From Candidatus Oxydemutator sp. (GTDB taxonomy: Bacteria > Pseudomonadota > Gammaproteobacteria > Poriferisulfidales > Oxydemutatoraceae): 64,000 nt of DNA. The DNA lies in NCBI GenBank assembly GCA_965203445.1, contig OZ241883.1, forward strand, positions 1 through 64,000. The letters are read 5' to 3'. Shown piece after piece: positions 22,043 through 26,942 of the stretch. How positions within the stretch are numbered: position 1 is the stretch's first letter; the number at the start of each line of letters is the position of its first letter. The notes below the pieces were generated by a model. That model had not been told where the DNA came from. It searched no databases and was given only the letters and a program-made list of their open reading frames with translations. The position numbers and the translations under genes are program-made.

Positions 22043-25000
22043 ATGCCGACTGACAACCCCACAATCGTGCGCTGGGGCGGCCTGCACGGCTGCGCCGCGG
22101 CGCGCGCCGTGGCCGATCTGCTGCAAGACGAGCGCGTCGCTATCCTGCTGATCGCGCCCGATACGGCGCACGCCGCCCGGTTCGAGTCCGAGTTGCGCTT
22201 CTTCCTGGGCGACGGGCGTGACGTCGTCTCGTTCCCGGACTGGGAGACGCTGCCGTACGACCATTTCTCGCCCCACTCCGACCTGTCGGCGGCGCGCCTT
22301 GCGACGCTTGCGCGCCTGCCGCGGCTTGCGGCCGGCGTGTGCATCACCACGTGCGCCGCGGCGATGCAGCGGCTTACGCCGGCGTCGTTCATTCAGGCGC
22401 GGGCGTTCACGCTGCGATGCGGCGACAAACTCGATATCCACGACTTCCGCAGGCGCCTGAACGAGGACGGCTACGCCGCGACGTCGCAGGTCTCGCATCA
22501 CGGCGACTTCAGCGTGCGCGGCGGCATCGTGGACTTTTACCCGCCGTCGGGCGCGCACCCGGTACGCGTGGAACTGTTCGACGACGAGATCGCAAGCTTG
22601 CGTCTGTTCGACGCGCAAACCCAGATGTCGGCGGAGACGGTCGAGGAGGTCGCGGTGCTGCCGGCGCGCGAGTTTCCGATGGACGCCGCCGCAATCGCGG
22701 GCTTCCGCCGCCGCTTCCGCGTCGAGTTCGACGCGACACCCGGCGAGTGCCCGGTGTACCGCGACGTGAGCGAGCACGTCGTCCCCGGCGGCATCGAACA
22801 TTATCTGCCGCTGTTTTTCGACGACCTGTCCACGCTGTTCGACTACCTGCCGAGCGACGCGCTGGTGGTCTCCACCGAGGCCCTGGACGAACACGCGGCG
22901 GCGCACTGGGATTACGTCGCCGGGCGCTACCGCCAGCTGTGCGAGACGCCGCAGCGCCCGTTGGCGGCACCGCAAAGACTCTATCTGACGCCGGACGAAC
23001 TGGGCGCGCGGACGCGGGATTTTCGCCGCGTCGAGATCCAACCCTTTCGCCACCGCGACAAGCGCGGCGCGCGCCTAGGCGACGTCGTGGATTTTGCGAC
23101 GCGCGTGCCGCCGCCGCTGGCGCTCGACCTGCAACAACCGGATCCCGCCGCCAAGTTGCGCGCGTTCGTAGCCGACTTCGACGGTCGTATCCTGATCGCG
23201 GCGCAATCGCCCGGCTACCGCGAGCGCCTGTCCGAGTTACTCGCCGACTACGGTCTGCGCGCGCACGTCGTCGGCGACTTCAGCGAGTTCGCCGAGGGCA
23301 CCGAACGCCTGTGCCTGTGCGTCGCCGCGTTGCACGAGGGCGCGGTGTTCGACGACGAACGCCTTGCGCTGATAACCGACGAGCAGATCCTGGGGCCGCG
23401 CGCCGCGGCGCGCCGCCGCGCGCGGCGCACACCGGACGCAAACGCCGTCATCGAGAATCTCGGCAGCCTCGAGCCCGGTTGCGCGATAGTCCACGAGGAG
23501 CACGGCGTCGGGCGCTTTCGCGGTCTCGAGGTCATCGAACTGGCCGGCTACCCGTCGGAGTTCTGCGTCGTCGAATACGCCGAAGGCGACAAACTTTACG
23601 TGCCGGTGGCGTCGCTGCATCTGCTGAGCCGCTACGTCGGCGGCGACCCGGAGAGCGCGCCGCTGCACAAGTTGGGCGGCGGCCAATGGCGCAAAAGCCG
23701 GCGCAAGGCCGCGGTCAAGGCGCGCGACGTGGCCGCCGAGCTGCTCGACGTGCAGGCGCGGCGCGACGCCCGCGGCGGCTTCGCCTTCGAGCCGTTCGAG
23801 GCCGACTTCCGCGCCTTCGCGGCGGCCTTCCCGTACGAGGAGACGCCCGACCAGAGCAAGGCCATCGGCGACATCCTGAGCGACATGCGCGCGCCCAGGC
23901 CGATGGACCGCGTGGTGTGCGGCGACGTCGGCTTCGGCAAGACCGAAGTGGCCATGCAGGCGACGTTCGTCGCCGCGTGCAACAGCCGCCAGACCATGGT
24001 GCTGGCGCCGACGACGCTGCTCGCAAGGCAGCACTACGAGACCTTCCGCGAGCGCTTCGCGGCGTGGCCGGTGCGCATCGAAATGCTGTCGAGGTTCCGC
24101 AGCCGCGCCGAAATCGGCGCCAGCGTGGCGGCGATAGAGAAAGGCGCCGCGGACGTCGTCATCGCGACCCACAAACTGCTCCACCAGAACGTGCGCTTCA
24201 AGCGCCCGGGCCTGATCATCATAGACGAGGAACACCGCTTCGGCGTCAAGGACAAGGAAAAGCTGAAGGCGCTGCGCGCGCGATGCGACGTCCTGACGCT
24301 GACCGCGACGCCGATCCCGCGCACCCTGAGCATGAGCCTGAGCGGGCTGCGCGATCTCTCGATTATCGCGACGCCGCCGCCCGGGCGCCACGCCGTCAAA
24401 ACCTTCATCAAGCAGTGGGACGACGCGCTGATCCGCGAGGCCTGCCAGCGCGAGCTGCGGCGCGGCGGCCAGGTGTATTTTCTGCACAACGACGTCAAGA
24501 CCATCGAGGAAATGGCGCGGCGCGTGCGCGAACTGATGCCGCAGGCGCGCGTCGCCGTCGCCCACGGCCAGATGCCGGAACGCCTGCTGGAGAACACGAT
24601 GCTCGACTTCTACCACCGGCGCCGCGACCTCCTGGTGTGCTCGACGATCATCGAAAGCGGCATAGACGTGCCCAGCGCCAACACCATCGTCATCCACCGC
24701 GCCGACCGCCTGGGCCTGGCACAGTTACACCAGTTGCGCGGGCGCGTCGGGCGCTCGCACCATTCCGCCTACGCCTATTTCCTGGTGCCGCCGAAGGCAC
24801 AAATGACCGGCGGCGCGATGAAACGCCTGGAGGCGATAGAGTCGCTCGAAGACTTGGGCATAGGCTTCACGCTGGCGGTGCAGGACCTGGAGATCCGCGG
24901 CGCCGGCGAACTGCTCGGCGAGGAGCAGAGCGGCCATCTGCAAGAGGTCGGCTTCACGATGTACAACCGCCTGCTGAAACGCGCCGTCGAGGCCCTCCAG

Positions 25001-25489
25001 TCGAACGAGGAAGTGGACCTGGACGCGCCGCTCGACACCGTGGCCGAGGTGCGCCTGGGCGAACCGGCGCTGATCCCCGACCACTACGTGCCCGACGTCG
25101 GCCTGCGCCTGGTGCTCTACCGGCGCATCGCCGCGGCCGCCGACCACGACCAGCTCGACGAGCTGAGGCTCGAGATGACCGACCGCTTCGGCGCGCCGCC
25201 CGAGCACGTCGCCAACCTGTTCACGAACGCGGCGTTGCGGCTGCGCTGCCGCGCCCTGGGCATAACCCGCGCCGAGGCCGACGACGCCGGCTTTCGCGTC
25301 CACTTCGCCGGGCAGACGAACTTCGACACCGCCGGGCTGCTCGCGCTGGTGCAGGAGCAACCGGCGCTGTATCGCTTCCACGGCCCGCGCAAGCTGATCA
25401 TCTCCGAGACGCGCGACACCGCGCGTGAACGCAAACGCTACCTCGAAGGCTTTTTTGGGGAATTACATACTTTAATCCGTGAAGGATAG
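22043..25489 (+). CDS. mfd: Transcription-repair coupling factor
   Basis: FPDWETLPYD, GDVGFGKTEVA, DEEHRFG, QLRGRVGRS, DLEIRGAG. The last 10 codons come from the inserted element. Confidence 0.96.
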   Translation: MPTDNPTIVRWGGLHGCAAARAVADLLQDERVAILLIAPDTAHAARFESELRFFLGDGRDVVSFPDWETLPYDHFSPHSDLSAARLATLARLPRLAAGVCITTCAAAMQRLTPASFIQARAFTLRCGDKLDIHDFRRRLNEDGYAATSQVSHHGDFSVRGGIVDFYPPSGAHPVRVELFDDEIASLRLFDAQTQMSAETVEEVAVLPAREFPMDAAAIAGFRRRFRVEFDATPGECPVYRDVSEHVVPGGIEHYLPLFFDDLSTLFDYLPSDALVVSTEALDEHAAAHWDYVAGRYRQLCETPQRPLAAPQRLYLTPDELGARTRDFRRVEIQPFRHRDKRGARLGDVVDFATRVPPPLALDLQQPDPAAKLRAFVADFDGRILIAAQSPGYRERLSELLADYGLRAHVVGDFSEFAEGTERLCLCVAALHEGAVFDDERLALITDEQILGPRAAARRRARRTPDANAVIENLGSLEPGCAIVHEEHGVGRFRGLEVIELAGYPSEFCVVEYAEGDKLYVPVASLHLLSRYVGGDPESAPLHKLGGGQWRKSRRKAAVKARDVAAELLDVQARRDARGGFAFEPFEADFRAFAAAFPYEETPDQSKAIGDILSDMRAPRPMDRVVCGDVGFGKTEVAMQATFVAACNSRQTMVLAPTTLLARQHYETFRERFAAWPVRIEMLSRFRSRAEIGASVAAIEKGAADVVIATHKLLHQNVRFKRPGLIIIDEEHRFGVKDKEKLKALRARCDVLTLTATPIPRTLSMSLSGLRDLSIIATPPPGRHAVKTFIKQWDDALIREACQRELRRGGQVYFLHNDVKTIEEMARRVRELMPQARVAVAHGQMPERLLENTMLDFYHRRRDLLVCSTIIESGIDVPSANTIVIHRADRLGLAQLHQLRGRVGRSHHSAYAYFLVPPKAQMTGGAMKRLEAIESLEDLGIGFTLAVQDLEIRGAGELLGEEQSGHLQEVGFTMYNRLLKRAVEALQSNEEVDLDAPLDTVAEVRLGEPALIPDHYVPDVGLRLVLYRRIAAAADHDQLDELRLEMTDRFGAPPEHVANLFTNAALRLRCRALGITRAEADDAGFRVHFAGQTNFDTAGLLALVQEQPALYRFHGPRKLIISETRDTARERKRYLEGFFGELHTLIREG

Positions 25490-26828
25490 TGAAGTAGCTG
25501 ATTTTATGTAAGATTTTGTTATAATGTTTGAGAATGAAGGTTCATAGAACAATTCGATACAGGCTGCATGCCAGCACGCATGCCAAAGCCCGCAAGTTGG
25601 CGGGTTTGGCGGGTGCGTGCAGGTTTGTGTGGAACCATTTTGTAGGAAAGTTACGGGATGAGTATATAGCATATGGAAGATGCAGGCCTTGGTATTTTAC
25701 ATTGGGCAAGCAGTTCACTCTGTTGCGACGTTATTGTGAACCCTGGTTGCAGGAATACTCGGCCAACATAGTAAAGAGTTCTTTGAAGCCCATAGAAACT
25801 GCGTACAAGAAGTTCTATGACAAGAAAGGAGGACTCCCTAGGTTTCATGCAAGATATGTACATCATGAGAGTTTCCCTTTGGTATCTGGTTTGTTTCGTA
25901 TAAGGGGTCGCCATTTGCATATAGCCAAGATAGGCGAGGTGCTGTTGCTTGGCCATAATCCGTATCCCGATGCAAAGCCCGTGTCGGGCACAGTCAAAAG
26001 GGAATGCGGGAATTGGTATGCATACATAGTGTATAAAGTGGAACAGAAAGAAGTTAAACGTGAATATAATTCAGTAGGCATAGACAGAAATGTAGGTCAA
26101 ATAACATGCTCGGATGGGATAGTTTATCGAATGCCTGATACTACTCGATTAGAGGCGCGTCGTCGTCGTTATCAGCGGATGATGGCGAGGCGGAAGTGCG
26201 GTAGCAGGAAGCACAAGGTAAAACCCTCTAATCGCTATCTGCGTGCCAAGCATTCCCATGCCATAACGTGCAGGAAGATAAAGCAAAAGAGGAACAACTG
26301 GTGTCATCATGTAAGCAGTGAGATAGCAGAGAATTATTCTGTAGTGCATTTGGAGGATTTGAATACGAGGGGCATGACGAGGGGTGCCAAGGGCACGGCT
26401 ACTGCCCCTGGCAGGAATGTGAAGGCCAAGTCGAGCCTGAACAAAGGAATACTACGTACGAACTGGTATAAATTAGAGCAGTATTTGGGTTACAAAACCC
26501 AAGTAAATTATGTATCTGCAAAGAACACGAGTCGTGCTTGCAACAAGTGCGGATGTATAAACGAGAAGAACAGAGTATCGCAATCAATGTTTGTTTGTGT
26601 TGATTGCGGCCATCGAGACAATGCGGACTGGAACGCCGCCAAGAATGGCAAAGTTCTGGGCGATGCTACACTGAATTACAAGGCCTCCGGGAATGGGGCT
26701 ACTGGACGCGGAGGTGGCGGTAAGACCTTGAAGGAATTATTAACCGACAAGGCACGGCCTGTGAAGCGTCAAATGGATACTTCAATCTCAGAGAATAATG
26801 TTCTCACGGATTAAAGTATATAATTCCC
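25458..26828 (+). mobile_element. Non-autonomous TIR-bounded element (IS1595-like ends) carrying only tnpB
   Basis: Left end gggaattacatactttaatccgtga (25458-25482) and right end tcacggattaaagtatataattccc (26804-26828) are 24/25 inverted. Direct repeat cttttttg at 25450-25457 and 26829-26836. Interior is AT-rich. Confidence 0.9.
25534..26814 (+). CDS. tnpB: TnpB RNA-guided endonuclease (IS200/IS605 OrfB family)
   Basis: AGACRFVWN; RuvC-I GIDRN; RuvC-II LEDLN; Zn ribbon TSRACNKC..CVDC; RuvC-III NADWNAAKN. Confidence 0.93.
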   Translation: MKVHRTIRYRLHASTHAKARKLAGLAGACRFVWNHFVGKLRDEYIAYGRCRPWYFTLGKQFTLLRRYCEPWLQEYSANIVKSSLKPIETAYKKFYDKKGGLPRFHARYVHHESFPLVSGLFRIRGRHLHIAKIGEVLLLGHNPYPDAKPVSGTVKRECGNWYAYIVYKVEQKEVKREYNSVGIDRNVGQITCSDGIVYRMPDTTRLEARRRRYQRMMARRKCGSRKHKVKPSNRYLRAKHSHAITCRKIKQKRNNWCHHVSSEIAENYSVVHLEDLNTRGMTRGAKGTATAPGRNVKAKSSLNKGILRTNWYKLEQYLGYKTQVNYVSAKNTSRACNKCGCINEKNRVSQSMFVCVDCGHRDNADWNAAKNGKVLGDATLNYKASGNGATGRGGGGKTLKELLTDKARPVKRQMDTSISENNVLTD

Positions 26829-26942
26829 CTTTTTTGATACCATTGCGCATTGATGTCCGTCGCCCACCCTCTCCTACGGGGGAGAGGGTTACATGATGGG
26901 CCCGCGAACAATATCTCCCTCTGGGTGAGGGAGAATGCAGCA

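Follow-up and report, generated by a model that had tools for sequence, protein, structure and literature searches.

A tnpB gene as the sole cargo of a probable non-autonomous IS1595-type cassette in Candidatus Oxydemutator, with a candidate target-adjacent motif in its flank

The first 64,000 nucleotides of contig OZ241883.1 (assembly GCA_965203445.1, Candidatus Oxydemutator sp., Gammaproteobacteria), here called the window, raise the question of how a tnpB gene comes to lie alone between terminal inverted repeats (TIRs) and a target site duplication (TSD), and of what moves it. The IS200/IS605 and IS607 insertion sequences (ISs) have neither TIRs nor TSDs according to the excerpts of a 2026 review cited here (PMC13565253), which agrees with what the initial annotation of the locus, made from the sequence alone, had said of the canonical tnpB carriers. 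Since both TIRs and a TSD are present, the window element is not a member of either group. The annotation read it as a non-autonomous nuclease element mobilised in trans by a DDE transposase of the IS1595 type. It expected the same TIRs to bound IS1595-type transposases as well as other tnpB copies with differing 8-bp TSDs, and an empty allele of the interrupted gene, mfd, to survive in relatives; it also proposed a TnpB tree scored by type of end. Evidence to the contrary would have been IS605-type ends inside the TIRs together with tnpB-free copies of the same miniature inverted-repeat transposable element (MITE), or the lack of any transposase sharing the TIRs. Our analysis favors the same answer. 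The element is most probably a transposase-less, non-autonomous IS1595 cassette that carries an apparently active tnpB with its predicted omega-RNA region and is mobilised in trans.

The element spans positions 25458-26828 of the window (1.37 kb), and tnpB is its only gene. Its left TIR (GGGAATTACATACTTTAATCCGTGA, 25458-25482, forward strand) and right TIR (GGGAATTATATACTTTAATCCGTGA as read on the reverse strand, 26804-26828) are identical at 24 of 25 positions; the inverted-repeat listing gives the same pair as arms 25457-25482 and 26804-26829 with 96% complementarity. A perfect 8-bp direct repeat, CTTTTTTG, abuts both TIRs at 25450-25457 and 26829-26836. The ends and repeats originally reported were thus recovered by the repeat search, and the TIR 25-mer has just two sites in the window, with none expected from 100 shuffles. 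The G+C content of the element is about 46%, compared with about 70% in its surroundings. The sole long open reading frame (ORF) between the TIRs is tnpB, which runs on the forward strand from 25528 (a TTG; an ATG follows at 25534) to 26814 and encodes 428 amino acids. The start codon follows the left TIR at a distance of only about 50 nt. The TAA stop codon at 26812-26814 lies inside the right TIR, 14 nt short of the element end, and therefore leaves no room for IS605-type ends within the TIRs. No transposase gene was found within the element, either in the list of ORFs or by Pfam. The earlier description of an interior filled by a single tnpB thereby holds, and the absence of an IS1595 transposase ORF makes the element a mobile insertion cassette (MIC) rather than an autonomous IS.

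The cassette interrupts the 3' end of mfd, the gene for the transcription-repair coupling factor, whose present reading frame occupies 22043-25489 on the forward strand and encodes the domains TRCF, DEAD, UvrB_inter, MFD_D3 and CarD_TRCF_RID. The insertion exchanged the last 5 mfd codons for 10 element-encoded codons. The original end of the gene is seen in two genomes of the same genus, G003 and G001, in which the expected empty allele was found: the mfd site is uninterrupted (...GGTTTTTTTGATACCAT... / ...GATAACAT...), carries a single copy of the octamer that is duplicated in the window, and is followed by a homologue of the right flank. The element is accordingly a true insertion that duplicated 8 bp. 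Contigs from one independent public short-read run span both element junctions. Two contig-only runs of one sample gave no joint at the ends of the element; their one long 'skip' joint has a 22-nt side and lies off the TIRs.

The protein has the features of a guided nuclease. Its Pfam domains are HTH_OrfB_IS605, OrfB_IS605 and the Cas12f1-like TNB Zn ribbon, and it scores 175.6 bits against the NCBIfam family guided_TnpB (cut-off 100); the scores against IS200_TnpB (137 bits) and IS607_TnpB (80.7 bits) are under the respective cut-offs of 425 and 350. Residues 21-374 align to the solved TnpB chains 8bf8 and 8exa (E 1.2e-17), and its motifs can be aligned to the ones in 9yyg, an RNA-guided nuclease designed by AI that is the best match among the solved chains. 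Across 17 diverse aligned sequences the RuvC residues D184, E274 and D365 and the cysteines C336, C339, C355 and C358 of the CxxC...CxxC Zn ribbon are invariant, bearing out the initial recognition of all three acidic residues and the Zn ribbon. The window tnpB is apparently active.

The window copy is one of many in its genome. The genome, assembled as one contig of 2.38 Mb with 63.6% G+C, contains 13 full-length tnpB copies whose products share 56-100% amino acid identity with that of the window copy, and 12 of the 13 have both ends of the GGGAATTATATA type. The octamers flanking these 12 differ between copies; the two octamers of a copy are identical (8/8) in eight cases and match at 7/8 positions in two, and one copy each shows 6/8 and 4/8. 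One of the copies (1131112-1132482) is about one base apart from the window copy, which points to recent movement. The terminal 12-mer, allowing at most two mismatches, occurs at 133 sites in the genome, compared with 26 for a reversed control. The TAA contained in the terminal ...TATATAATTCCC, which lies 5 nt short of the end, serves as the tnpB stop in eight of ten own copies, so that gene and transposon end are integrated with each other. The inner parts of the TIRs fall into about seven variants among the 13 copies, and both TIRs of each copy share one variant.

The same genome has one intact IS1595-type transposase gene and one fragment. The intact gene lies in the only intact IS1595-family element (1978350-1980965; locus L097:1001-3616), which is 2616 bp long and has TIRs identical at 25/25 positions (GGGAATTATATACTTAAATCTACAA) and the 8-bp TSD ATCAGAAA. 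Its transposase matches DDE_Tnp_IS1595 (E 1.3e-43) and Zn_ribbon_IS1595, and scores 206 bits against the NCBIfam family transpos_IS1595 (cut-off 75). A passenger gene 3' of the transposase encodes a 436-amino-acid fusion of an N6_N4 DNA methylase with an HNH nuclease domain. In a comparison of the printed sequences, the TIR of this element is identical at 23-24 of 25 positions to those of the tnpB copies at 174463, 975120 and 2133905.

Three short TIR pairs were also identified in the genome, at 757576-757755 (180 bp), 247602-248387 (786 bp) and 113341-113503 (163 bp). Two were examined, the first and the second, and they retain N- or C-terminal fragments of tnpB; they are therefore internal-deletion derivatives, not empty MITE hosts. 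From these sequences, the MITE-like elements of the genome appear to arise by internal deletion of tnpB cassettes. Neither form of the contrary evidence concerning nesting was thus obtained, the IS605-type ends for want of room and the tnpB-free MITE as far as the two examined pairs are concerned. A separate observation is a cassette at 1233732-1235101 (TIRs 25/25, TSD TAATTTTT) that begins 367 bp downstream of a solo left end with a different TIR variant (region 1233365-1235101), which suggests that it inserted into or beside an older element.

The association of tnpB with these ends extends well beyond one genome. A scan of one genome per species found 123 relatives, from which 80 tnpB loci were kept. 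The hosts are nearly all metagenome-assembled genomes (MAGs) and belong to the Gammaproteobacteria, Thermodesulfobacteriota, Chloroflexota, Rhodothermota/Bacteroidota and Spirochaetota. With a detector that requires both ends to lie within 3 mismatches of the terminal 12-mer, both ends were recognized at 50 of the 80 loci, and at 42 of the 80 the TIRs agree at no fewer than 18 of 25 positions. A perfect 8-bp TSD is present at 23 loci and one of at least 7/8 at 27. No transposase was found inside the cassette at any of the 80 loci; the only matches, at L009 and L027, are fragments about 2 kb upstream and outside the cassette. A scan of metagenome contigs (JGI, by TnpB alignment) returned only distant relatives of 27-42% identity, none of them with TIRs or a TSD, and these were used as an outgroup.

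Transposases with the same termini are present in the related genomes as well. Together with the element at 1978350-1980965, 22 insertions in related genomes make 23 independent transposase-bearing insertions with the same termini and 8-bp TSDs. The expectation that the TIRs would bound IS1595-type transposases, and further tnpB copies with differing TSDs, is in this way confirmed in the source genome and in others. The inner TIR variants of the transposase elements recur on tnpB cassettes. The TIRs of the transposase element L101 and the cassette L024, which lie in one genome, are alike at 25/25 positions, as are those of the transposase element L104 of a same-genus genome and the cassette at 430970 of the source genome. 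Such sharing is the pattern expected of autonomous and non-autonomous partners. When the tables for 53 genomes of the order were compared, the transposase was present in 28 and tnpB in 18; the transposase occurs in all 18 genomes with tnpB and in 10 of the 35 without it, a co-occurrence that does not amount to a statistical test because the genomes are kin.

In a tree of 103 TnpBs, scored by end type as had been proposed, the TIR-bounded proteins form a single clade. The tree is a quick, unrooted FastTree with Shimodaira-Hasegawa (SH)-like support values. The clade has 33 rows and a support of 98, and includes all 26 rows with both ends and all 5 with one end; the remaining two are L072, a close relative whose ends the detector missed, and L129, a long-branch metagenome sequence. 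The 70 rows outside, which consist of the metagenome relatives of 27-42% identity and of archaea, lack TIRs. Pfam was run on 150 of the 196 neighboring ORFs (110-285 amino acids) of the outgroup loci. Y1_Tnp lies beside tnpB at eight outgroup loci, seven of them in the sister clade, and no serine recombinase or IS1595 transposase was found in the 150 ORFs. These sequences would be read most simply as one event in which an IS1595-type element captured a tnpB of the IS200/IS605 type; as the tree is quick and unrooted, we infer the direction of that event. The TIR-bounded clade (L009-L084) comes almost only from MAGs with sponge-symbiont-like names (Porisulfidus, Poriferihabitans) in at least 5 phyla, and such hosts across phyla suggest a habitat-bound horizontal spread.

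The predicted omega-RNA scaffold (26676-26828, forward strand), based on nucleotide conservation, covariation and folding, covers the right TIR and part of the ORF, namely its C-terminal tail. The last approximately 150 nt of the element are conserved at the nucleotide level among clade proteins that are 37-55% identical. RNAalifold predicts 13 pairs, 6 of them with compensatory changes, which occur in two stems; one of these is a long-range stem with 9 GC-to-CG swaps. In the window the scaffold stretch is predicted to fold at -46.9 kcal/mol (z -2.65). For 25 of 28 elements a terminal hairpin is predicted in which the right TIR contributes its inner half as the 3' arm, with ...AUAAUUCCC left single-stranded. 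By analogy with other TnpB omega-RNAs, we take the scaffold to end with the right TIR and the guide to come from the adjacent TSD copy and flank; the predicted guide-encoding stretch of the window, which comprises the TSD copy and the next 12 nt or so of the right flank, is 26829-26848 on the forward strand. A guide of this kind agrees with the tnpB 3' ends within 250 bp of the transposon end in the main text of PMC10691335, and a TIR that ends the scaffold agrees with the precedent of Fanzor TIRs as scaffold in the cited excerpts of PMC10711439. The TIR itself is less likely to be the guide, since its outermost 12-13 nt do not vary within the clade and an orientation-specific motif lies in the flank.

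That motif became apparent when the flanks of the cassettes were oriented by tnpB. Among 50 independent cassette insertions, 48 have a purine at position -9, the base that directly precedes the left TSD (30 G, 18 A, 2 T and no C; binomial p 5e-12), whereas only 19 of 50 have a pyrimidine at the mirror position on the other side (Fisher p 3e-10). T occurs at position -10 in 28/50 (mirror A in 11/50) and A at position -11 in 29/50 (mirror T in 14/50). The resulting A-T-R motif at -11 to -9 was first seen in 37 insertions. It recurs in the 18 non-discovery insertions with a purine in 18/18, T in 12/18 and A in 10/18, although these 18 rows include one own copy already counted and two probably orthologous ones, so that two are not independent. 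Neither end of the 23 transposase-bearing insertions has the motif: the purine is found in 14/23 at one end and in 8/23 at the other (Fisher p 3e-4 and 3e-8), T in 6/23 and 5/23, and A in 7/23 at each. The motif may be the target-adjacent motif (TAM) of these TnpBs, judged from its position. TnpB-dependent retention by homing into empty sites predicts a motif of this kind, asymmetric, specific to tnpB and placed where a TAM would lie for a guide that begins with the TSD; as evidence of a TAM it is indirect. The corresponding candidate TAM position in the window is 25447-25449 on the forward strand. Reading the motif as part of a -35/-10 promoter was rejected on spacing, by our own reading only.

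These results fit a sequence of steps that would account for the locus. The cassette would have entered the last codons of mfd by DDE-type transposition, which generated the 8-bp duplication. An IS1595-family transposase supplied in trans would move it, and the only intact source in the genome is the element at 1978350-1980965. The omega-RNA would end with the right TIR, its inner half providing the 3' arm of the terminal hairpin, and the guide would be transcribed from the adjacent TSD copy and right flank. TnpB would then cut unoccupied copies of the same site that bear A-T-R just 5' of the TSD sequence, and recombinational repair would copy the cassette in, so that it is kept or spread, as proposed for IS605 TnpB. 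The anatomy of the element, its nature as a true insertion, the ends it has in common with transposase-bearing elements and the clade-wide association are observed directly; the movement in trans by an IS1595-type transposase that the initial annotation proposed is deduced from the shared ends, the TSDs and the clade, which support it. More tentatively, the whole TnpB clade may go back to one occasion on which an IS1595 element captured an IS605-type tnpB, with the omega-RNA logic re-fitted to variable 8-bp TSDs: the right TIR would be the scaffold end, the guide would start with the TSD, the TAM would lie outside the TSD on the tnpB-upstream side, and only motif-adjacent insertions would be maintained by RNA-guided homing. 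We regard this broader scenario as a serious possibility that falls somewhat short of being probable.

Several observations weigh against this account. Between the window copy and the in-genome transposase element the TIRs agree at 20/25 positions in the printed sequences. No transposase element with the inner TIR variant of the window copy was found in its own genome, and a search of 300 sampled class genomes for the 25-bp TIR of the window copy, allowing at most 3 mismatches, matched the own genome only; mobilisation by the in-genome transposase is consequently deduced from the 20/25 identity and nothing closer. One or both recognizable ends are missing at 30 of the 80 loci (contig ends, decayed copies), three of which are archaeal and 29% identical. 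No empty-site allele was seen in two contig-only runs of one sample. The terminal hairpin, a crude and poorly discriminating measure, is also predicted at 15/28 left ends and 12/22 transposase-element ends, and Rfam gave no match to the element at E <= 1. Apart from position -9 the flank motif is weak, AGG stands in place of ATR at -11 to -9 in the window copy, and 8 of the 23 control insertions are of one element type in one genome. In addition, DDE cut-and-paste excision already leaves a break, as the excerpts of the 2026 review note (PMC13565253), so the selective benefit of TnpB in such an element is not obvious.

Could the arrangement have come about without a partnership between tnpB and the IS1595 transposase? 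An IS200/IS605-type tnpB element might have landed by chance in an unrelated MITE with TIRs and a TSD, and the Y1 TnpA association of the sister TnpB lineages and the palindrome at the right end would suit such an event. The association of tnpB with these ends in 12 of 13 own copies, in 42 of 80 loci and in several phyla effectively refutes it; so do the use of the terminal TIR TAA as the stop codon in 8/10 own copies, the distance of about 50 nt from the left TIR to the start codon and the tnpB fragments that mark the two examined short TIR pairs as deletion derivatives. We find chance nesting scarcely credible. Alternatively, the cassette could be independent of the IS1595 transposase and persist through TnpB, a host function or recombination and horizontal gene transfer only, the shared ends being a relic of capture. 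The missing transposase with the exact inner TIR of the window copy (type A), in the own genome and the 300 class genomes, would be expected under this proposal, as would about seven inner variants among 13 own copies facing one intact transposase. It has to contend with the differing 8-bp TSD of each copy, which is a DDE signature, with the same inner variant in both TIRs of each copy, with the presence of the transposase in all 18 tnpB-positive genomes of the order, and with 25-bp TIRs identical between cassette and transposase element in one genome; moreover, TnpB is not needed for IS605 transposition (PMC13565253, excerpts). Independence from the transposase is thus improbable. Slightly less probable still is a domesticated TnpB, for example an RNA-guided regulator like TldR, riding as a passenger in the cassette. 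Inactivated TnpBs provide a precedent in the main text of PMC10691335, nothing in this analysis favors it directly, and it conflicts with the invariant RuvC D/E/D residues and four Zn-ribbon cysteines in 17 diverse members and with a gene that is always within a mobile cassette, in multiple copies per genome.

The flank motif invites an explanation of its own. It could be real and yet no TAM if it reflects the sites that the transposase prefers, or a different kind of selection that depends on orientation, such as tnpB expression from the flank; the guide and TAM logic would then be different. The strength of position -9 alone and the AGG of the window copy would be unsurprising on these terms, and DDE transposases do have target preferences (the TSDs here are 79% A+T). 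Such a preference should be symmetric, however, and the mirror position is a pyrimidine in 19/50 insertions against a purine in 48/50 at -9. The motif is also absent from both ends of the transposase-bearing insertions of the same family, and for a -10 box in the TIR it would fall in the spacer and not in the place of a -35 box, by our own reading of the spacing. A motif of this other kind is possible, and we consider it doubtful. The preferred reading remains that of a cassette moved in trans with its nuclease and guide, and the A-T-R motif may be the TAM.

The general arrangement, in which TnpB is associated with DDE transposases and TIRs and has solo copies, was already published in 2023. 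Altae-Tran et al. (PNAS; PMC10691335) describe in their main text six DDE-transposase-associated TnpB branches (DDE-1 to DDE-6), all with inverted terminal repeats, and solo TnpBs between ends near-identical to those of transposase-bearing elements, which they read as trans-mobilisation. The window element is like these in its inverted terminal repeats and in a tnpB 3' end within 250 bp of the transposon end (14 nt for the window stop). It is unlike the elements of that main text in that the transposase is never inside the cassette (0/80 loci) and in the flank motif described here. The only family named in the main text is IS630, for DDE-6, and 'IS1595' occurs there 0 times; the excerpts of the 2026 review (PMC13565253) list ISL2, IS630 and IS1031. 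Our literature searches found no paper tying TnpB to IS1595, with PMC10691335 covered in its main text. The window clade may be one of DDE-1 to DDE-5. What distinguishes it here is an exclusively non-autonomous TnpB clade with IS1595-type ends, a partner transposase in the same genome and a candidate TAM.

The termini resemble those given in ISfinder for the ISNwi1-like group of the IS1595 family (ends ggnnatTAT / GGnnnTTAT, 8-bp TSD, passenger genes). Siguier, Gagnevin and Chandler are said to have described the IS1595 family in 2009, including this ISNwi1-like group with its passenger genes. The likeness presumably covers the 8-bp TSD, TIRs of about 25 bp, a transposase of about 310 amino acids with an N-terminal Zn ribbon and DDE_Tnp_IS1595, and the passengers, of which the methylase of the in-genome element is one. 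The window element differs from that group in lacking a transposase and in having as its passenger an RNA-guided nuclease whose reading frame and predicted RNA run into the TIR. Mobile insertion cassettes, such as MIC231 of Bacillus cereus, consist of IS ends around non-transposase cargo and are moved in trans by the cognate IS. Unlike in MICs, the cargo here is itself a nuclease for the maintenance of mobile elements, and cassette lineage and cargo have diversified together, as one clade. Fanzors were reportedly noted by Bao and Jurka in 2013 in eukaryotic and viral transposons with TIRs and TSDs.

Two further comparisons concern solo tnpB genes and Fanzors. The window element is like the IS1341-type solo tnpB of the IS200/IS605 family in that tnpB is its only gene, has multiple copies per genome and has Y1 TnpA-associated TnpBs as its nearest outgroup. 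Unlike the IS1341 type it has TIRs and a TSD, and its IS200_TnpB score is far under the cut-off; Y1_Tnp is absent from the element and was found only beside outgroup TnpBs. With Fanzor1 and Fanzor2* elements, as presented in the excerpts of PMC10711439 cited here, it shares a TnpB-family nuclease that is often the sole cargo and a non-autonomous cut-and-paste mode. In the same excerpts Yoon et al. (2023) predict that the Fanzor TIR is part of the guide-RNA scaffold. The short, fixed TSD of the Fanzor elements is absorbed in the scaffold (PMC10711439); here the TSD is 8 bp long and variable, and would have to be part of the guide. The bacterial hosts and the typical length of the TnpBs are further differences from the Fanzor elements of those excerpts.

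The locus bears on two open questions, namely why an association of RNA-guided TnpB nucleases with DDE cut-and-paste transposons is so rare among prokaryotes, and how a flank-derived guide works when the transposon duplicates a variable target. It provides a bacterial parallel to the Fanzor-carrying TIR elements of eukaryotes and a natural system of dozens of intact, recently mobile cassettes with a matching transposase family. The prediction that the guide consists of TSD plus flank, with A-T-R just 5' of the TSD as the TAM, is testable. If the broader scenario is true, the transposase-less cassette would be a homing drive, and this would explain why it is present in several bacterial phyla. 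If the TAM reading fails, the element remains a well-documented member of an arrangement known in outline.

Some minor features of the locus concern expression. Many inner TIR variants contain TTGACA, as seen by eye in the left ends of L009, L020, L023, L107, L110 and others (for example ...AACTTGACAA/G); its placement could fit a -35 box that faces inward and serves tnpB or the transposase. The TIR variant of the window is without TTGACA and is accompanied instead by TGTTATAAT (25517-25525, forward strand), a tentative extended -10-like sequence noted by eye 9 nt 5' of the ATG. A promoter and terminator scan of the left end with a two-hexamer promoter model found nothing, including at TGTTATAAT. 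A perfect inverted repeat of 9 bp with a 6-nt loop (ACCCTCTCC...GGAGAGGGT, 26866-26889), which lies just 3' of the place where mfd originally stopped, is possibly an mfd terminator or a hairpin resembling repetitive extragenic palindromic (REP) sequences. Several contigs of the sequencing runs have a 1-nt deletion at 26877.

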